Source: Armatimonadota bacterium
GTDB taxonomy: Bacteria; Vulcanimicrobiota; JACPDS01; JBDRKI01
Assembly (NCBI GenBank): GCA_043814095.1
Contig: JBDRKI010000127.1
Coordinates: 1-27,802, forward strand
Reading direction: 5' to 3'
DNA length: 27,802 nucleotides
A program made the translations under genes and the position numbers. Below, piece by piece: positions 160-26,509 of the stretch (its first letter is position 1; each line of letters opens with the position of its first letter). The notes below the pieces were generated by a model, which was not told where the DNA came from, searched no databases, and saw only the letters and a program-made list of their open reading frames with translations.

Positions 160-441
160 CTAAGCCGCCCGGGATTCAAGTTTTGTTATTCTTTGCTCAT
201 GATTAGTCAATACATTATTTGTTTTTTTTATTTCATGTTTTACTTCATCTATTTTAGTATCTATTTTTCTGTCTGAATAATCAAATCTGACTGCCATTTC
301 ATCCCTTAATTCTTTCGTATTGATATCGATTTTTTTATCTAATCTTTCAATTTTATTATCCAATACCTTATGGCCCTCAACAACAGTAGAGAGCTTGCTG
401 TTAATATCCTCAAGTATTACTTCAAAATGCTCTTTTTTCAT
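160..441 (-). CDS. Small coiled-coil hypothetical protein (93 aa)
   Basis: Heptad-like LDNKIERLDKKID, KIDTKIDEVK and HEQRITKLE segments. GAGG RBS and a good promoter upstream. Confidence 0.75.
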   Translation of the reverse strand: MKKEHFEVILEDINSKLSTVVEGHKVLDNKIERLDKKIDINTKELRDEMAVRFDYSDRKIDTKIDEVKHEIKKTNNVLTNHEQRITKLESRAA

Positions 442-468: not shown

Positions 469-497
469 ATTATAGCAAATTACATTACTTTTGTCTA
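469..497 (-). promoter_or_regulatory. Sigma70-type promoter of the 93-aa gene
   Basis: Minus strand TAGACA - 17 nt - TATAAT, with extended -10 (TGcTATAAT). Confidence 0.65.
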
Positions 498-1994
498 ATG
501 ATTGTTTTTTATGGTTTTTATTGCTTCTTTTGCTTCGGCTTTTATATTCCCGTATTCATCCCCTTTTTCTTTTATAATCTTTTCAAGACACGGGATAAGC
601 GGCTCGGCTGTTTTTCCTAATTTTTCCACTGCCCGGAGTGCCGACATAATTACGGCAGGATCGTCGCTTTCCAAAGCTTCTTTTATATAAGGGAGGGCTT
701 TGGATGAATCTGAATCTCCCAGCGTAATAATTATTGCCGAATATACTCTGGAATTACTTTCCTTTTTAAGTAATTTTACAAGGGCGGAAAATACATCATT
801 CCTGTCTTTTATTATCTCGCCCAACGCATGTACTGCCCATTCCCGCACCCTTGCGTCATCATCATTTAAAGCCTGCTTAAGATCCGCAGATGCTTTTAAT
901 ATGGCCCTTTTACCCATCTGGGCTAACGCGTAAGCACAATGTTTCCGCACCGCGCCTACTTTATCATTAAGAAGAAGCTCTCTAACATCTTCAAATGCCC
1001 CAACCGCATCTTTGCCTATATTCCCCAATCCGTCAGCGGCAGCTTCCCTTATTCTCCATTCTTTGCTTTTTAAATTTTTTCTAAGATACGGTACCGCGGG
1101 TTTACCTATATCTTTCAGTGCAAAACCTATCTGTACATTCAAATCCCTGTTGCCGTGTAAAGCTAACTTTAGAATATCGGGCACTGCCTCTGCCGAAGGA
1201 GCTCCGATTATTCCCAGAAAATAAACTGCTGATATACAGTCGGGATTTCCGTATTTCAGATATTCTCTAAGGTACGGAACTGCTTTTTTCCCGAAACTTT
1301 TAAAGGCTTTTTCCCGTGCTGTTGTCACATTATAATAAGGGAACTTATTGCTATCTATATCCATAAGCGTAGAAACAATCACTTTGTTAACTACGCCTAT
1401 TTTGCCCAGCGCCTCTATTTCCGAAGCTAAGGCTTCTGCACATTCTTTACGGTTAGAAATACTTTCGTCTTCTACTTTAAATAAATCCAGAATAACCGCT
1501 TTTACAATATCTTTAACCGCGGAATCCGCATATTTGCCTATACTGCCTAAAGTCTTCGCGGCATGAGCTCTGGTATACGGGTCGTCGCTTTTTAAATATT
1601 TTGCGATATAGGGAACAGCAGGCGCCGCTGATCTGCCCATTCTCTCGAACTGTTCAAGAGTCCAATCCGGAGAATCGTCTAATTTATCAATGAGTTCCTT
1701 AATCTCCCCCGTCATTTTAGGAAAATACCTTAAGCGGATATCCGCAATCTCATCCGGGGTCAGCTTATTATCTTTTTTGACATACGGTTCTAATATTTTA
1801 TATGCTTCTTTTTGTTCTGCTGCTTCCAGAAATTGATTTTTAGGATTCTTATCAATTTTTTTCGAAAACAAGTACTTTAAAGTTTTTCTATCTTTTATGC
1901 TAAGCTTTGATAGATTTAACTTTCTAACTTTTCCCCTATCATCTACCAACGGAATACTATTCTTTATGAGCACCTCATTTATTTTAAATGCCAT
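495..1994 (-). CDS. HEAT (PBS-lyase-type) repeat protein with N-terminal EF-hand-like domain (499 aa)
   Basis: Repeated motifs such as LKSDDPYTRAHAAKTLGSIG, LKSKEWRIREAAADGLGNIG and LNDDDARVREWAVHALGEI. GAGGAG RBS. Confidence 0.9.
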   Translation of the reverse strand: MAFKINEVLIKNSIPLVDDRGKVRKLNLSKLSIKDRKTLKYLFSKKIDKNPKNQFLEAAEQKEAYKILEPYVKKDNKLTPDEIADIRLRYFPKMTGEIKELIDKLDDSPDWTLEQFERMGRSAAPAVPYIAKYLKSDDPYTRAHAAKTLGSIGKYADSAVKDIVKAVILDLFKVEDESISNRKECAEALASEIEALGKIGVVNKVIVSTLMDIDSNKFPYYNVTTAREKAFKSFGKKAVPYLREYLKYGNPDCISAVYFLGIIGAPSAEAVPDILKLALHGNRDLNVQIGFALKDIGKPAVPYLRKNLKSKEWRIREAAADGLGNIGKDAVGAFEDVRELLLNDKVGAVRKHCAYALAQMGKRAILKASADLKQALNDDDARVREWAVHALGEIIKDRNDVFSALVKLLKKESNSRVYSAIIITLGDSDSSKALPYIKEALESDDPAVIMSALRAVEKLGKTAEPLIPCLEKIIKEKGDEYGNIKAEAKEAIKTIKNNH

Positions 1995-2033: not shown

Positions 2034-3239
2034 TTATTCCCCCATTTTTATTAAAGCATTTTTTATGCAGTCTTTTATATCACTATTATCAGTTGTTTTA
2101 TCTATCTGTTTAAGAATGGGAACTAAAGACCTGCCCGTCTTTCCAAGACAACCTGAAGCCGCAACAGCTTTCAAAAGAAGATGTTCATCTTCACTTTTCA
2201 GAGCCTGTTTTATATAAGGTATGGCTTTTACAGATTTCGTCTCTCCAAGAACATGGATTATATTAGCATATATATCCGGGTGTTTCTCTTTTTTAAGTGA
2301 ACTTATAAGGGCATTGACCACGTCCTTATCTTCTATTACGGTCTGCCTTAATGCATTTAGAACATGACCCCGCACTCTTGCATCTTTATCATTTAAGGAT
2401 TTTAAAAGATACGGCTTTGCCTGCTTTAATTTCAACCCGCCCAGCGAAGATGCGGCTTCCGCCCGCACCATTCCATTTTTATCTTTATCGAGAGCGGTTA
2501 TAAGGAAGGCTCCGGTCTTACCAGCATACTTTGACGGCATATCGCTCAGTGAATCAGCTGCCAAGCGGCGCATATACGGATCTCTATCATTCAACAATAT
2601 ACTGCCAAGATGATCTATTGATTGAGGACTTAAGTGTACCAGCATCTCTTCAATCTTATTATGGCTCAATGAAGTCGCCCTGCTCGGATTTAGATTGGCT
2701 GCCTTTTCAATTTTCACAAGTAAATACAGCATATTCCAAACAAGCTCTTTACTGGTCGCACCCATTTTTGCAACCGCTTCTAAAACAGAATCAGTCAGAT
2801 CTCCGTTCTGATCTCTGCGTATTATTTTTATAAATGCAGGAAGCGCAGGGGCAGCTGCCTGCCCGCAATCGCTTAATTCCCTGATTGCATCCTGACGACT
2901 TGCTTTGCTTTCATAAATATCAGATGCTATTTCAATATTTTTTTTGAATTCATCCGCACCTTTACCGTATCTTTTTGCAAAAAGTTTAGTTTTTACAATT
3001 TCAATATCCTTTAAGGTTAATTCTTTATCTAATAAATAAGGCTTAAAAGCTTTATAAAATTCTACTTGCTCACACTGCTCTAAAACACCGTTATCATTTC
3101 CATCAAAATAATTAATCATTAAAGAGCTTATCTTTTTCCCTGTTTCTTTATTGTTGAAGCTTATATATTTTGCTCTCCCCTCATTATTTAAAATAACAAA
3201 ACGCTTATTTTCCGGTATCTGTAAAATTTTAATTGCCAT
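2034..3239 (-). CDS. HEAT repeat protein with N-terminal EF-hand motif (401 aa), paralogue of 495..1994
   Basis: HEAT motifs (DRDPYMRRLAADSL, DKNGMVRAEAASSLG, LNDKDARVRGHVLNAL). Start moved to ATG 3239 because AGGAGG lies immediately upstream and the N-terminus then matches the paralogue (MAIKI vs MAFKI). Confidence 0.88.
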   Translation of the reverse strand: MAIKILQIPENKRFVILNNEGRAKYISFNNKETGKKISSLMINYFDGNDNGVLEQCEQVEFYKAFKPYLLDKELTLKDIEIVKTKLFAKRYGKGADEFKKNIEIASDIYESKASRQDAIRELSDCGQAAAPALPAFIKIIRRDQNGDLTDSVLEAVAKMGATSKELVWNMLYLLVKIEKAANLNPSRATSLSHNKIEEMLVHLSPQSIDHLGSILLNDRDPYMRRLAADSLSDMPSKYAGKTGAFLITALDKDKNGMVRAEAASSLGGLKLKQAKPYLLKSLNDKDARVRGHVLNALRQTVIEDKDVVNALISSLKKEKHPDIYANIIHVLGETKSVKAIPYIKQALKSEDEHLLLKAVAASGCLGKTGRSLVPILKQIDKTTDNSDIKDCIKNALIKMGE

Positions 3240-3318
3240 ATACGCCTCCTGTAATAAATTTAAATACAGCACAATTATAGCATAAGGAGATATGAAAAGT
3301 TGTTAACAAAATGTTAAC
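3237..3318 (-). promoter_or_regulatory. Conserved regulatory cassette, copy 1 (GTTAAC direct-repeat box, extended -10, RBS)
   Basis: Minus strand GTTAACATTTTGTTAACAACTTTTC (3318-3294), then CCTTATGcTATAAT (-10 at 3279-3274), then GGAGGCGTATATG. The first 25 bp are identical to 6494-6518. Confidence 0.85.
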
Positions 3319-3348
3319 TTTTTACCCCTTAAAACTCCCCTATAACAT

Positions 3349-3378
3349 AAAAAAGACAGCGGTTTTACGCTATCTTTT
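3349..3378 (-). terminator. Rho-independent terminator after hflX
   Basis: Minus strand AAAAGATAGCG-taaaac-CGCTGTCTTTTTT: stem with one U-G pair followed by a U-tract. Confidence 0.7.
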
Positions 3379-3400
3379 AAGAAATAATTATATTTTCTTG

Positions 3401-4519
3401 CTACCACCCGTTGCCTGAGATATCATCCATTATAAGGGCTTCTATATGGTTAAGAAGCCTTTTAAATCCTATCTTGGAAGAAGCCGATACAACAACACTC
3501 TCGGGTATCATTTTCCTTATCGCCCTTACCTTCATTTTATCTTCAACAAGATCAACCTTATTCAACACGTTTAAAACAGGCTTATTATCAGCGGCAAGAT
3601 CTGCCAAAATCTCATTAACCACCTGGTAATGTTTATACCAGTGGCTGTCCGATATATCCATAACATTTATTATCATATCGGCATACCTTGCCTCTTCCAG
3701 TGTTGATTTAAACGCCGCTACAAGCTCAACAGGCAGGTTTCTGATAAATCCCACGGTATCTACAAGAAGAAGTTCATGCCTCTGGGGAAGAGTAACTATC
3801 TTTGTCATGGGGTCTAATGTTGCGAACAATTTATCTTCAACAAGAGAGTTTGCGCCCGTTAATGTATTAAGAAGGGTTGATTTTCCCGCATTTGTGTAGC
3901 CCACTATGGCGGCTATCTTAAAGCCTCTTTTATGCCTGCCGGACCTTAAAAGCTCCCTGTGCTCTTCAACTTTTTTAAGCTCTTTCCTTAATGTGGCTAT
4001 CTTTTTATTAATATGCCTTTTATCCGTCTCAAGTTTTGTCTCACCGGGCCCCCTTGTTCCTATACCGCCTCCGAGACGGGATAGTATAACACCGTAACCC
4101 GTAAGACGGGGAAGAAGGTAATTTAACTGCGCCAGTTCAACCTGGATCTTACCTTCCCTTGATTTAGCGCGCATTGCGAATATATCAAGTATAAGGGCGT
4201 GCCTGTCAATTACTTTTTTATTTAACGCTTCCGAAATATTTCTTTCCTGTATGGGTTTCAGGTCATTTAAAAATATAATCAGGTTAACATCATATTCATA
4301 AACCAGCTGTTTCAACTGTTCAATCTTGCCCTTCCCTATAAAATACGCGGGATCGGGGCTTTCCCTTTTCTGCATAACCACTTCTGTCACTTGAGCGCCT
4401 GCGGAATAAGCAAGAAGTTCAAGCTCGGCAGTTAAATCATAAATCTGGTCCCTGTTTGAAGGAAGTTCAACCGCCACTAAAATGGCCCGTTCTTTTCTTT
4501 CCTTCTGTATGTTTATCAT
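3401..4519 (-). CDS. hflX: Ribosome-splitting GTPase HflX
   Basis: LILDIFAMRA, QVELAQL, GGGIGTRGPGETKLE, G1 GYTNAGKS, G2 LFATLD, G3 DTVGF, G4 NKVD. Confidence 0.97.
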   Translation of the reverse strand: MINIQKERKERAILVAVELPSNRDQIYDLTAELELLAYSAGAQVTEVVMQKRESPDPAYFIGKGKIEQLKQLVYEYDVNLIIFLNDLKPIQERNISEALNKKVIDRHALILDIFAMRAKSREGKIQVELAQLNYLLPRLTGYGVILSRLGGGIGTRGPGETKLETDKRHINKKIATLRKELKKVEEHRELLRSGRHKRGFKIAAIVGYTNAGKSTLLNTLTGANSLVEDKLFATLDPMTKIVTLPQRHELLLVDTVGFIRNLPVELVAAFKSTLEEARYADMIINVMDISDSHWYKHYQVVNEILADLAADNKPVLNVLNKVDLVEDKMKVRAIRKMIPESVVVSASSKIGFKRLLNHIEALIMDDISGNGW

Positions 4520-4650
4520 CTTTTTACTGATAAGGCATCACCTCATATCCCATATTCACTATATATAAAGGGTTATCCTTCACAAAAAAAGGAATTATAA
4601 TGCTCCTATGTAGAAACTTACCAACATTATAACCTTATATGAGGTGAATT

Positions 4651-5907
4651 ATGAAATTTGTAAGTATATTAGGACTTGTAATTATTCTCTTTATAGCTTT
4701 TCTATTGTGCGAAAACAAAAAGAAGATTAATTTTAAAGCTTTAATGTGGGGGCTTGTCCTGCAGCTTGCTTTTGCCCTTTTCATATTAAAAACCACTTTC
4801 GGGAAATGGATTTTTGAGTTTATAAATAAACTCGCAGTTAAGCTTCTGAATTTCACGACAGCAGGAGCATCTTTCATCTTCGGAAATCTCGTAACGGATA
4901 CAAAATCATTCGGGTTCATATTCGCATTCCAGGTGCTTCCCACGATAATATTTTTCGCGTCGCTCATGGGCGTGTTATATTATTTAGGCATTATGCAGTG
5001 GATAGTAAGAATATTCGCCATAGCCATGATTAAGCTCATGAAAACTTCCGGCATTGAATCATTAAACGCAGCTGCTAATATATTCATAGGCCAGACTGAA
5101 GCCCCTCTTTTGGTAAAACCTTATGTTTCAAAATCAACAAGATCAGAGCTTCTGGCAATTATGGTGGCAGGCATGGCTACCATAGCGGGCGGCGTAATGA
5201 TAGCGTATGTTGCAATGCTTAACGATTATGTGCCTGATATAGCAGGCCACCTTATGGCGGCATCCGTCATAAATGCCATAGGCGCCCTTATATTCACCCG
5301 CCTCATAATACCGGAGACCGAAGAACCCGAGACTCTCGGAAAAGTTAAGTTGGATGTTCCCAAAACAGACGCTAATGTTATTGATGCCGCCGCAAACGGC
5401 GCTTTTACAGGGCTTCATCTCGCGTTAAACGTGGGCGCCATGCTTCTTGCATTCATAGCTTTGATCGCTATGTGCAACTACGGGCTCCATCTTGTAGGAA
5501 TGGGTATAAATAAAATATTCAGCACTAACTTAAATTTAAGCCTCCAGTTAATATTCGGATACATATTCTCGCCATTCGCGTGGATTATAGGGATACCGTG
5601 GAAAGACTGTATACCGGTAGGAAATGTTCTCGGCATGAAGCTTATCATAAATGAATTTTTCGCGTACAGTGAATTCTCAATGATGCTTAAAAATTCAGTT
5701 TCTAAATTTGATGCAAGATCCCTTATTCTCGCTTCTTATGCATTATGCGGGTTTGCCAACTTCTCATCAATAGCGATACAGATAGGCGGTATAGGCGGTA
5801 TAGCACCATCAAGGAAACACGACCTTGCAAAACTGGGAATAAAGGCGCTCATTGCTGCAACCCTTACAAACCTTGCAACAGCGGCAATAGCTGGAATATT
5901 GATATAA
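4651..5907 (+). CDS. nupC: Concentrative nucleoside transporter (CNT/NupC family)
   Basis: FAFQVLPTIIFF, ANIFIGQTEAPL, GMATIAG, NEFFAY and YALCGFANFSSIAIQIGG signatures. Confidence 0.93.
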   Translation: MKFVSILGLVIILFIAFLLCENKKKINFKALMWGLVLQLAFALFILKTTFGKWIFEFINKLAVKLLNFTTAGASFIFGNLVTDTKSFGFIFAFQVLPTIIFFASLMGVLYYLGIMQWIVRIFAIAMIKLMKTSGIESLNAAANIFIGQTEAPLLVKPYVSKSTRSELLAIMVAGMATIAGGVMIAYVAMLNDYVPDIAGHLMAASVINAIGALIFTRLIIPETEEPETLGKVKLDVPKTDANVIDAAANGAFTGLHLALNVGAMLLAFIALIAMCNYGLHLVGMGINKIFSTNLNLSLQLIFGYIFSPFAWIIGIPWKDCIPVGNVLGMKLIINEFFAYSEFSMMLKNSVSKFDARSLILASYALCGFANFSSIAIQIGGIGGIAPSRKHDLAKLGIKALIAATLTNLATAAIAGILI

Positions 5908-5937
5908 AATATATCCGGCTAATTACTTAATATTTAA

Positions 5938-6192
5938 TTATTTATATATATCTCCGCGGGGTTTTATAAATATTATTTTTACAGTTTTTTTATCAATATC
6001 GACATCACAGATAAGCCTAAATCCACCTATAACAACCTTCCATTTTTCTTTTAATTGCCCGTAAAGCGGTTCTAGTAAGAGAAAAGGCCTCTCTTCCAGT
6101 TTTACAAAACATTTGAAAAAAGCTTTCTGAAGTTTTGGCGAAAGCTTTTTAAAATATTTTACAGGTTGTTTATCCAGTCTGACTTCAAACAT
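5938..6192 (-). CDS. Type II toxin, RelE/ParE superfamily
   Basis: 84-aa basic protein with WKVVIGGFRLI and C-terminal PRGDIYK. Overlaps the upstream antitoxin by 8 nt. Confidence 0.85.
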   Translation of the reverse strand: MFEVRLDKQPVKYFKKLSPKLQKAFFKCFVKLEERPFLLLEPLYGQLKEKWKVVIGGFRLICDVDIDKKTVKIIFIKPRGDIYK

Positions 6193-6412
6193 TCTTGAAG
6201 GCCTTTCTCCAAGGGACTCCCTTTGATTTCTTAGACTCTTTTAATGCCGTTCTGAATTCAGGATCGGCTAAAAGTTCAAGTTCTTCGGCATAATTTAAAA
6301 GAGCCGCCTCAATAACACTGTTTAAGCTTCTGTGCTGTCTATCGGCCAGTTCCTGGAACACCCTAAGAAGCTCCATCCCTAACCTTATATGAAGTGATGC
6401 TGATTTTGCCAT
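6185..6412 (-). CDS. Ribbon-helix-helix antitoxin (75 aa)
   Basis: Start moved to ATG 6412 (GAGGAGG RBS). SLHIRL strand followed by LQELADRQHRSLNSVIEAAL helices, and an ELELLADPEF tail typical of RelE-linked antitoxins. Confidence 0.85.
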   Translation of the reverse strand: MAKSASLHIRLGMELLRVFQELADRQHRSLNSVIEAALLNYAEELELLADPEFRTALKESKKSKGVPWRKAFKNV

Positions 6413-6435
6413 AAATACAACCTCCTCGCACTTAA

Positions 6436-6465
6436 ATTGTAGCACAAACGACCACAATATGTCAA
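6436..6465 (-). promoter_or_regulatory. Toxin-antitoxin promoter with overlapping inverted repeat (probable autoregulatory operator)
   Basis: Minus strand TTGACA - 18 nt - TACAAT with extended TG. Inverted repeat ATTGTAG (6436-6442) / CCACAAT (6452-6458), 6 of 7 matching. Confidence 0.7.
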
Positions 6466-6492
6466 ACAAAAAGAGACCCATAAGGTATAAAA

Positions 6493-6571
6493 TGTTAACA
6501 TTTTGTTAACAACTTTTCTCCCCCCTTATGTTATAATTTCCTTGCAAAACCTTATATCGGAGGCATATATG
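6493..6571 (+). promoter_or_regulatory. Conserved regulatory cassette, copy 2
   Basis: TGTTAACATTTTGTTAACAACTTTTC, then CCTTATGtTATAAT (-10 at 6532-6537), then GGAGGCATATATG. Confidence 0.85.
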
Positions 6572-7096
6572 AATATTTCATCGGCAAACATCAACCAGTC
6601 GGCAAAAACAATGTTTGGACCGCAGATCGTGATGACCCATCCGGCAGATTATATCGTAGAAGATAAAAAAATAAGAAAGCACGGTTTATACCACCTAATA
6701 TATGAGGTAACCGAACATCCCGAATGGTTTCCTGAAAATATTGTAACATCAGTAAATGAGCTCAGTTCCCTGCAGAAAAAACTCAACAGTAAGGTCAGGA
6801 TTATTTCAGACCTTAAGAAAATAAGAGAAGTTATAGACAATTCCAGTAAACCTAAATTGCTTGAAAAGGAACTGGGCAAAAAAGGCGTGGAAATATTTAT
6901 TTCCGAGAAAAAACTTTCTGATGAAATTAAACCTCTCTTAACCGAGAGAAAAGAGCTATTCGCGCAGATCAAAAAAGATTATTCACCGTGGTTTAAAGAA
7001 AAACAGGAAACCTTATCTATTATTGATAAGCAAAGCAGGTACTGGCTCACATTAGTGAATGTAAGCGGCTATATTGAATATTTAAATAAAAACTAA
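6569..7096 (+). CDS. Orphan hypothetical protein (175 aa), Lys/Glu-rich and helical
   Basis: Start moved to ATG 6569 on the basis of the GGAGG RBS. The TTG 6503 start lies inside the operator box. No recognisable motif. Confidence 0.75.
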   Translation: MNISSANINQSAKTMFGPQIVMTHPADYIVEDKKIRKHGLYHLIYEVTEHPEWFPENIVTSVNELSSLQKKLNSKVRIISDLKKIREVIDNSSKPKLLEKELGKKGVEIFISEKKLSDEIKPLLTERKELFAQIKKDYSPWFKEKQETLSIIDKQSRYWLTLVNVSGYIEYLNKN

Positions 7097-26468: not shown

Positions 26469-26509
26469 TTGTTAACAAAATGTTAACAATTTGGTAATAA
26501 TTTGGCAAT
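26469..26509. promoter_or_regulatory. Copy 3 of the GTTAAC box, extended to four half-sites at 11-bp spacing
   Basis: TGTTAAC 26470, TGTTAAC 26481, TGGTAAT 26492 and TGGCAAT 26503. Bases 26469-26487 are identical to 3300-3318. Confidence 0.8.

Follow-up and report, generated by a model that had tools for sequence, protein, structure and literature searches.

The stretch of DNA analysed here (the window) is the 27,802-nucleotide (nt) contig JBDRKI010000127.1 of an Armatimonadota bacterium (assembly GCA_043814095.1). Our subject is a promoter element built of GTTAAC half-sites 11 base pairs (bp) apart, referred to below as the box, together with the genes that follow it (Table 1). Two segments that carry the box, 3318 to 3237 on the minus strand (82 nt) and 6494 to 6571 on the plus strand (78 nt), are identical over exactly their first 25 bases, as a sequence-only reading of the window had reported. 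The motifs CCTTATGYTATAAT and GGAGGCRTATATG are found in both copies as that reading described them, and TATAAT, 22 and 21 nt past the second GTTAAC, begins at 3279 and 6532. Neither copy has a TTGACA-like hexamer at the -35 position; rplM and the toxin-antitoxin operon carry TTGACA. The same reading had taken the two downstream genes for orphans. This is true of the plus-strand gene, a singleton whose product of 175 amino acids (aa) matched only itself (184 candidates). The 401-aa minus-strand gene is not an orphan, because its product, a HEAT-repeat protein, has paralogs, and the next gene codes for one of them. The two HEAT genes are probably on the same transcript. The run of HEAT genes ends with a small coiled-coil open reading frame (ORF) at window positions 160-441, and a similar-looking ORF (the two were not aligned) ends another box-controlled locus (G000:C46:8605-8832; G000 is the source genome and C numbers are its contigs).

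Table 1. Features of the window that belong to the three boxed loci
Feature	Position	Strand	Basis
Array 1, two GTTAAC half-sites 11 bp apart (putative activator box)	3302..3318	-	sequence
AACTTTTC tail directly after array 1, covering the -35 position	3294..3301	-	sequence
TAAGG element, 13 nt ahead of the first half-site of array 1	3327..3331	-	sequence
Extended -10 (TGcTATAAT), 22 nt past array 1	3274..3282	-	sequence
Shine-Dalgarno GGAGG (array 1 gene)	3245..3249	-	sequence
401-aa HEAT-repeat protein, first gene under array 1	2034..3239	-	sequence
499-aa HEAT-repeat paralog (26.5% identical to the 401-aa protein), 40 nt downstream of the 401-aa gene	495..1994	-	
TAAGG element, 13 nt before array 2	6481..6485	+	sequence
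Array 2, two GTTAAC half-sites 11 bp apart	6494..6510	+	sequence
Extended -10 (TGtTATAAT), 21 nt past array 2	6529..6537	+	sequence
Shine-Dalgarno GGAGG (array 2 gene)	6559..6563	+	sequence
175-aa singleton protein, candidate export substrate	6569..7096	+	
Array 3, four phased half-sites GTTAAC, GTTAAC, GGTAAT, GGCAAT	26471..26509	+	sequence
Gene under array 3, probable TTG start, extends past the contig end	26578..27802	+	

The box is not confined to the two copies of the earlier description. A third array lies near the end of the window, ahead of a gene without a Pfam match that belongs to a lineage-specific paralog family (the paralog on C56 is also boxed), and there are 93 arrays genome-wide. 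In the source genome (2.50 Mb, 129 contigs, 98.97% complete), GTTAAC-N5-GTTAAC occurs as 93 perfect pairs, against 0-1 at each of 15 other spacers (0 to 15). With one mismatch allowed, 155 pairs, 151 of them outside ORFs of at least 100 aa, were found at spacer 5 and at most 17 at other spacings. Intergenic DNA contains 88 of the perfect pairs; 50 shuffles of it gave 0.02 on average and never more than 1. The sites merge into arrays with two (36 arrays), three (18) or four (39) half-sites, which are spread over 50 of the 129 contigs and are nearly all intergenic. The two window copies are ordinary members of a regulon of some 90 sites and not copies of a cassette.

The arrays stand in a fixed relation to the promoter. 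An exact TATAAT starts most often 21 nt (25 cases) or 32 nt (18) after the last half-site, also at 10-11 (9), 33 (6) and 22 nt (4), and there are smaller peaks at 43 and 54 nt. The peak at 26 nt (9) consists largely of second, tandem TATAAT elements, or of elements 5 nt past a phased one-mismatch hexamer. Hexamers with an 11-bp period and a box placed whole helical turns from the -10 element are among the features by which OmpR/PhoB-activated promoters are recognized. The -10 element has a TG extension in 33 of 78 oriented promoters (38 of 404 controls), and two or fewer of the six TTGACA positions match at the -35 in 53 of the 78 (159 of the 404 controls). Period, phasing and extended -10 elements all point to activator-dependent promoters of OmpR/PhoB type, as had been proposed from the window pair, and the poor -35 matches may do so too. 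The presumed promoter mechanism is textbook, an ordinary OmpR-family design. Each GTTAAC half-site is a palindrome. In 27 of the 93 arrays TAAGG starts exactly 13 nt before the first half-site (the next commonest offsets have two cases each); being out of the 11-bp phase, it may bind a second factor. AACTTT, found in the tail of array 1, also follows five other arrays, and the tail is therefore part of the motif rather than a sign of copying.

We searched the genome for a protein that could read the box and found three OmpR-type regulators and no LytTR protein. One OmpR-type regulator precedes the pst operon and another adjoins efflux genes. The third (G000:C97:38444-39139) lies beside a soluble PAS histidine kinase. 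Orthologs of the C97 regulator, 61-77% identical, are present in 30 of 40 relatives, with a partial match in one more; none was found in the eight genomes of families f12 and f17 or in one 62%-complete genome. The recognition helix is near-invariant among the orthologs and differs in sequence from those of the other two OmpR-type regulators. The best NCBIfam model of the C97 regulator is YycF/WalR, at 279.7 bits and thus below the cut-off of 340. The 357-aa kinase matches only WalK positions 266-594, the cytoplasmic part, and has no transmembrane part. A WalR/WalK regulon in the strict sense would have a regulator above the YycF cut-off and a membrane-bound WalK, and this pair has neither. Database labels of the orthologs are Eremiobacteraeota, Vulcanimicrobiota, UBP9 and Ca. 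Bruticola, with a few Armatimonadetes or Chloroflexi. These labels place the source genome in the Vulcanimicrobiota (Eremiobacterota); RplM, searched against named genomes, matched at only 45-60% and gave no placement. By elimination, and by its co-occurrence with the box in one clade, this WalR-like protein is the likely reader.

Three arrays precede operons for a protein export machine. The array at C54:23692 heads flgB-flgC-fliE-fliF-fliG-fliH-fliI-fliJ-transglycosylase-fliK-like, the array at C54:15537 heads short flgE-like-fliM-fliN-fliO-fliP-fliQ-fliR-flhB-flhA, and the array at C55:15563 heads an operon with FlhB-like, FlgF, FlgG and FlgJ N-terminal genes. Together these operons supply a flagellar-type export apparatus (FliF, FliG, FliM/N, FliH/I/J, FliOPQR, FlhAB, FliE and FlgBCFG). 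Family models found neither flagellin nor MotA in the genome, and blastp with E. coli queries found no match for FlgK, FlgL, FliD, FliS, FlgH, FlgI or MotB. Absences of the second kind are weaker because E. coli queries miss divergent proteins (FliE, FliJ and FliO were recovered only by NCBIfam). The parts that would mark a motile flagellum, namely flagellin, the hook-filament junction, the cap and the MotAB stator, are thus missing from what was found. Nor is the machine an injectisome: it falls outside the SctV/SctR clade, its locus has no secretin, no SctF needle was found, and FlgB, FlgC, FliE and FliG are kept. Four secretins occur in the genome, at type IV pilus, type II secretion or unlinked loci (neighbouring ORFs were read by eye). 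Judged by gene content, the regulated machine is a filament-less, motor-less, flagellum-derived export system.

Two sets of related genes lie elsewhere in the genome. Two stand-alone proteins that correspond to the FlhA C-terminal (FHIPEP) region are encoded apart from the export locus (G000:C4:6190-7566 and C67:7431-8699). C70 and C84 carry cheA, cheB, cheR, cheW and two receptors, despite the lack of any detected flagellin or motor; these chemotaxis-like genes may serve type IV pili.

A further array, at C54:1306, heads the gene for an 80-aa protein (G000:C54:993-1232) that was modelled as a single long helix. The protein had no Pfam, PDB or Atlas match, no SctF match and no significant match to E. 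coli axial proteins. It belongs to a family of single helices of about 78 aa that is found in 24 of 41 genomes with up to eight copies, often directly after flhA, and that comprises 369 clusters in a large protein library. The same helix is also a C-terminal module of longer proteins: among the best 150 matches, 128 of 151 matched stretches end at the C-terminus. A clear box stands ahead of only 2 of 13 family copies examined in relatives. We regard the family as a candidate filament subunit or incorporation tag. Right behind the 80-aa gene lies a second small ORF (82 aa, G000:C54:711-959) without a family match, whose product is a possible partner subunit.

We then compared the system across the phylum. 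FliP is present in 40 of 41 genomes and flagellin in 14 of 41. FlhA splits into 58-70% and 39-48% groups, and in a FastTree of FlhA the 58-70% group and the sister group of f12 and f17 unite in a clade (support 99) that is distinct both from the phylum's flagellar copies (99) and from SctV (100); this and the FliP tree are single-marker trees with no bootstrap and few outgroups. A sister relation to injectisomes, for which a quick FliP tree that placed the system between SctR and flagellar FliP had spoken, was rejected for now, as the longer FlhA tree placed it inside flagellar sequences. A third divergent FliP clade occurs at G010:C49, G016:C2 and G034:C69 (FliP loci L292, L305 and L294), where no flagellin was found. 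Which system a flgB gene belongs to was decided from contig linkage or from best-hit rank. With up to two mismatches, the box pair precedes 25 of the 30 flgB genes that belong to this export system (19 of 30 with up to one), mostly in the form of four phased half-sites, the last of which ends some 10 nt ahead of the -10. By the same two-mismatch measure it was found upstream of none of eight true flagellar flgB genes, a weak control because three of the eight lie inside operons and four of the remainder come from one family. Perfect pairs number 0-16 per relative and 93 here, and the regulon is therefore either much expanded or much nearer to consensus in this genome. In two relatives, where 16 of 32 perfect sites were viewed, the neighbours are by eye a similar mix of unknown and exported proteins.

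What the scattered arrays control was approached through the proteins encoded downstream. Automatic pairing gave 98 array-ORF pairs over 83 arrays, of which we kept 77 targets by eye after dropping opposite-strand and shadow ORFs. The Pfam scan (cut-off E 1e-5) covered these 77 and two targets added by hand; the two genes of the window pair were scanned separately. Most downstream proteins, 63 of 79, have no Pfam family. The 16 that do include caspase-like proteins (4), HEAT proteins (2), a TPR protein, zinc metallopeptidases (2), a ComEA-like protein and two flagellar genes. We compared N-terminal composition (residues 2-26, with the protein body as control) between the 65 targets without a signal peptide and 272 other promoter-proximal first genes. 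The published type III feature set, in which S, T and P are raised and L, D and E lowered (PMC2669295), separates the two groups at the N-terminus with an area under the curve (AUC) of 0.73 (p 5e-9) and in the protein body with only 0.53-0.54. A wider feature set, fixed before the first test, gave 0.82 at the N-terminus and 0.49-0.55 in the body. A plain composition effect of orphan genes, the caveat raised by PMC2669295, is disfavoured because the bias is confined to N-termini. As a group, then, the orphan genes have N-termini that suggestively resemble those of type III cargo, although composition is not proof of export. The 175-aa protein of the window scores high for type III-like composition; in its model, a helical hairpin comes after an N-terminus rich in S, N, T and Q (residues 1-38, pLDDT <50). 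A fold search gave no match at E ≤0.001, and a weak SipB coiled-coil row (E 0.38) was not used.

Some products of boxed loci have features of their own. Gly/Met-rich low-complexity proteins are encoded at or near boxed loci in the source genome (G000:C38:7460-7948 and C12:26730-27101) and in G019 (loci L254 and L260), and we take them to be reminiscent of harpin-like helper proteins. A box-controlled protein at G000:C27:11090-12568 ends in a zinc metallopeptidase domain, matched by Pfam ATLF and Peptidase_M90.

With moderate confidence we read the arrays as the sites of one OmpR/PhoB-family activator, the regulon of which would comprise the export machine and scattered genes mostly encoding its substrates. 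In the mechanism that we propose, phosphorylated dimers of the C97 regulator would bind two to four half-sites in a row and recruit sigma-70 RNA polymerase to promoters whose -10 is good and often extended and whose -35 is poor. The regulon would turn on a type III export machine with basal body, rod, C-ring and export gate and with neither filament nor motor, and would co-activate dozens of scattered lineage-specific genes, most of them presumably encoding export substrates. The two genes of the window would both be regulon members, the 175-aa protein looking like a substrate and the HEAT protein, by composition, not.

Several observations weigh against this interpretation or limit it. Strong -35 elements (at least 5 of 6 matches) are not significantly rarer at boxed promoters (3 of 55 versus 40 of 404, p 0.46). 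No box was found upstream of the C97 regulator's own gene in any of 30 genomes. Regulator, box and export system co-occur as one clade, so that their co-occurrence counts as one event rather than as independent support. Families f12 and f17 have the sister export system and lack both a regulator ortholog and perfect pairs, while the seven f5 genomes have the regulator and no perfect pairs, only degenerate boxes. The small flagellar control described above is a further weakness. No L- or P-ring and no linked secretin were found in the genome. The N-terminus of the 401-aa HEAT protein is negative by the type III-like composition score. Twelve of the 77 targets (caspase lipoproteins, ComEA-like and pilin-like proteins among them) cannot be type III cargo because they have Sec-type hydrophobic N-termini, and the choice of targets and start codons was heuristic and by eye.

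Four other explanations were weighed against a single activator of export machine and substrates. The same kind of regulator could govern a broad programme for the envelope or a life stage, like that of WalR or CtrA, of which export is one branch and in which most orphans are not substrates. The YycF/WalR score, albeit below the cut-off, the likeness of the kinase to the cytoplasmic part of WalK, and the ComEA-like, pilin-like, caspase-lipoprotein and glycoside-hydrolase genes in the regulon all fit such a programme. It is at odds with a composition bias that is N-terminal only and with the large share of targets without a Pfam family, and we consider it unlikely, while still giving it real weight. 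We think it improbable that the box has a different reader (another OmpR-type regulator or a non-OmpR factor) or serves as a repressor or anti-silencing site. The half-sites are palindromic, the constant 13-nt distance of TAAGG hints at a second factor, the flgB array comes as close as 10 nt to its -10, and the candidate regulator gene lacks an autoregulatory box, all of which would suit such a role. A different reader is disfavoured by the failure to find a LytTR protein and by the other two OmpR-type regulators, which adjoin their own targets and differ in helix sequence; repression is disfavoured by the poor -35 elements and the strict phasing, which fit activation.

The remaining two explanations are both very improbable. 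The sequence-only reading had proposed an expression module reused for, or recombined in front of, cargo genes, and 25 identical bases with similar -10 and Shine-Dalgarno contexts do invite that idea. Among the 630 pairs of promoters with a 21- or 22-nt offset, the window pair is not exceptional: its upstream flank is identical at 15 of 28 nt (mean of all pairs 14.0) and the sequence downstream of its -10 at 9 of 24 nt (mean 9.1), another, unrelated promoter pair is also identical at 25 of 25 bases, and seven pairs are identical at 24 of 25. Recombination of a cassette is unsupported because the window pair shares no extra flank. A mobile promoter cassette of PeSL or integron type would be expected to share sequence beyond the functional motifs, and these promoters do not. 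Moreover, the arrays vary from two to four half-sites, and the box ahead of flgB has been conserved by vertical descent in different families, so that a mobile cassette is largely refuted. Assignment of the arrays to a phosphate (Pho) regulon could appeal to TTAACA, which resembles Pho-type half-sites, and to database names that label the regulator PhoP. Yet no GTTAAC pair with up to two mismatches was found upstream of the pst operon, the pst regulator or a second phosphate-binding-like gene, and the pst promoter (G000:C36, upstream of 20996) has a Pho-like 11-bp repeat of its own, CTTCACA-N4-CTTCACA, beside its own regulator.

Two observations concern other features. A ribbon-helix-helix (RHH) antitoxin and ParE/RelE-like toxin pair with a TTGACA-17-TACAAT promoter lies at window 5938-6412, divergent from array 2. 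A LAGLIDADG homing endonuclease-like ORF (G000:C38:13058-13519) was read by eye within an rRNA region.

If the single-activator reading is correct, the box marks a conserved filament-less export system across an almost uncultured phylum, together with a candidate master regulator, and serves as a DNA tag by which dozens of genes that otherwise defy annotation can be recognized as likely substrates. It would give a testable handle on the lifestyle of these bacteria, in association with a host or prey, and perhaps a further, independent instance of a flagellum turning into a secretion machine. A bolder version, which we offer as a speculation more doubtful than not, is that Vulcanimicrobiota made a second, independent transition from flagellum to protein-delivery machine, with its own filament or needle subunit of about 78 residues, a master switch of WalR type and, in this genome, over 50 effectors that are marked by the box and directed against the cells of a host or prey. 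In that case, the box sites would serve as a catalogue of the effectors in each member of the group. A literature search, with subscription papers mostly outside its reach, found no published description of this export system. Passages of PMC9259500, which ran TXSScan on related genomes, and of PMC10469934 leave it undescribed.

The box has close counterparts among known regulators. The perfect site of Staphylococcus aureus SaeR is GTTAAN6GTTAA (PMC5083920) and that of WalR is TGTWAH-N5-TGTWAH (PMC4168254). The box fits both, with their 11-bp period, and SaeR likewise governs secreted proteins; TGTTAA-N5-TGTTAA, which fits the WalR site, is present in window copy 2 and in most arrays. The system here differs in belonging to another phylum, in its regulator below the YycF cut-off and its kinase without a transmembrane part, and in its targets, type III export and orphan genes. 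In Salmonella, activation by PhoP works at distances of 12, 23 and 33 nt and is lost off-phase (PMC3335776). As with PhoP, the boxes stand whole turns from the -10 and the regulon takes in lineage-specific genes; unlike with PhoP, arrays have up to four half-sites, the half-sites are palindromic, and there are about 90 sites in 2.5 Mb.

As a machine, the system recalls Buchnera (PMC13468123) and Lysobacter enzymogenes (PMC7688988), in which basal body and export genes without a filament are used or proposed for secretion. Those are remnants of a lost flagellum, whereas here we see a separate, conserved paralog with its own regulon, which in many relatives stands beside a true flagellum. It shares with non-flagellar type III secretion systems, including the form in Myxococcales (PMC3459982), a flagellum-derived protein export without motility. 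It departs from the injectisome in keeping FlgB, FlgC, FliE, FliG and rod proteins, in scoring better as FlhA and FliP than as SctV and SctR, and in having no linked secretin, no SctF match and a place outside the SctV clade. The layout of the putative regulon resembles the PmrA and CpxR effector regulons of Legionella and Coxiella, in which a response regulator controls both a secretion system and scattered effectors, and the box has been used to find effectors (PMC2701608). The machine under PmrA and CpxR is type IVB with C-terminal signals, whereas the one proposed here is of flagellum type and its candidate substrates have an N-terminal bias.

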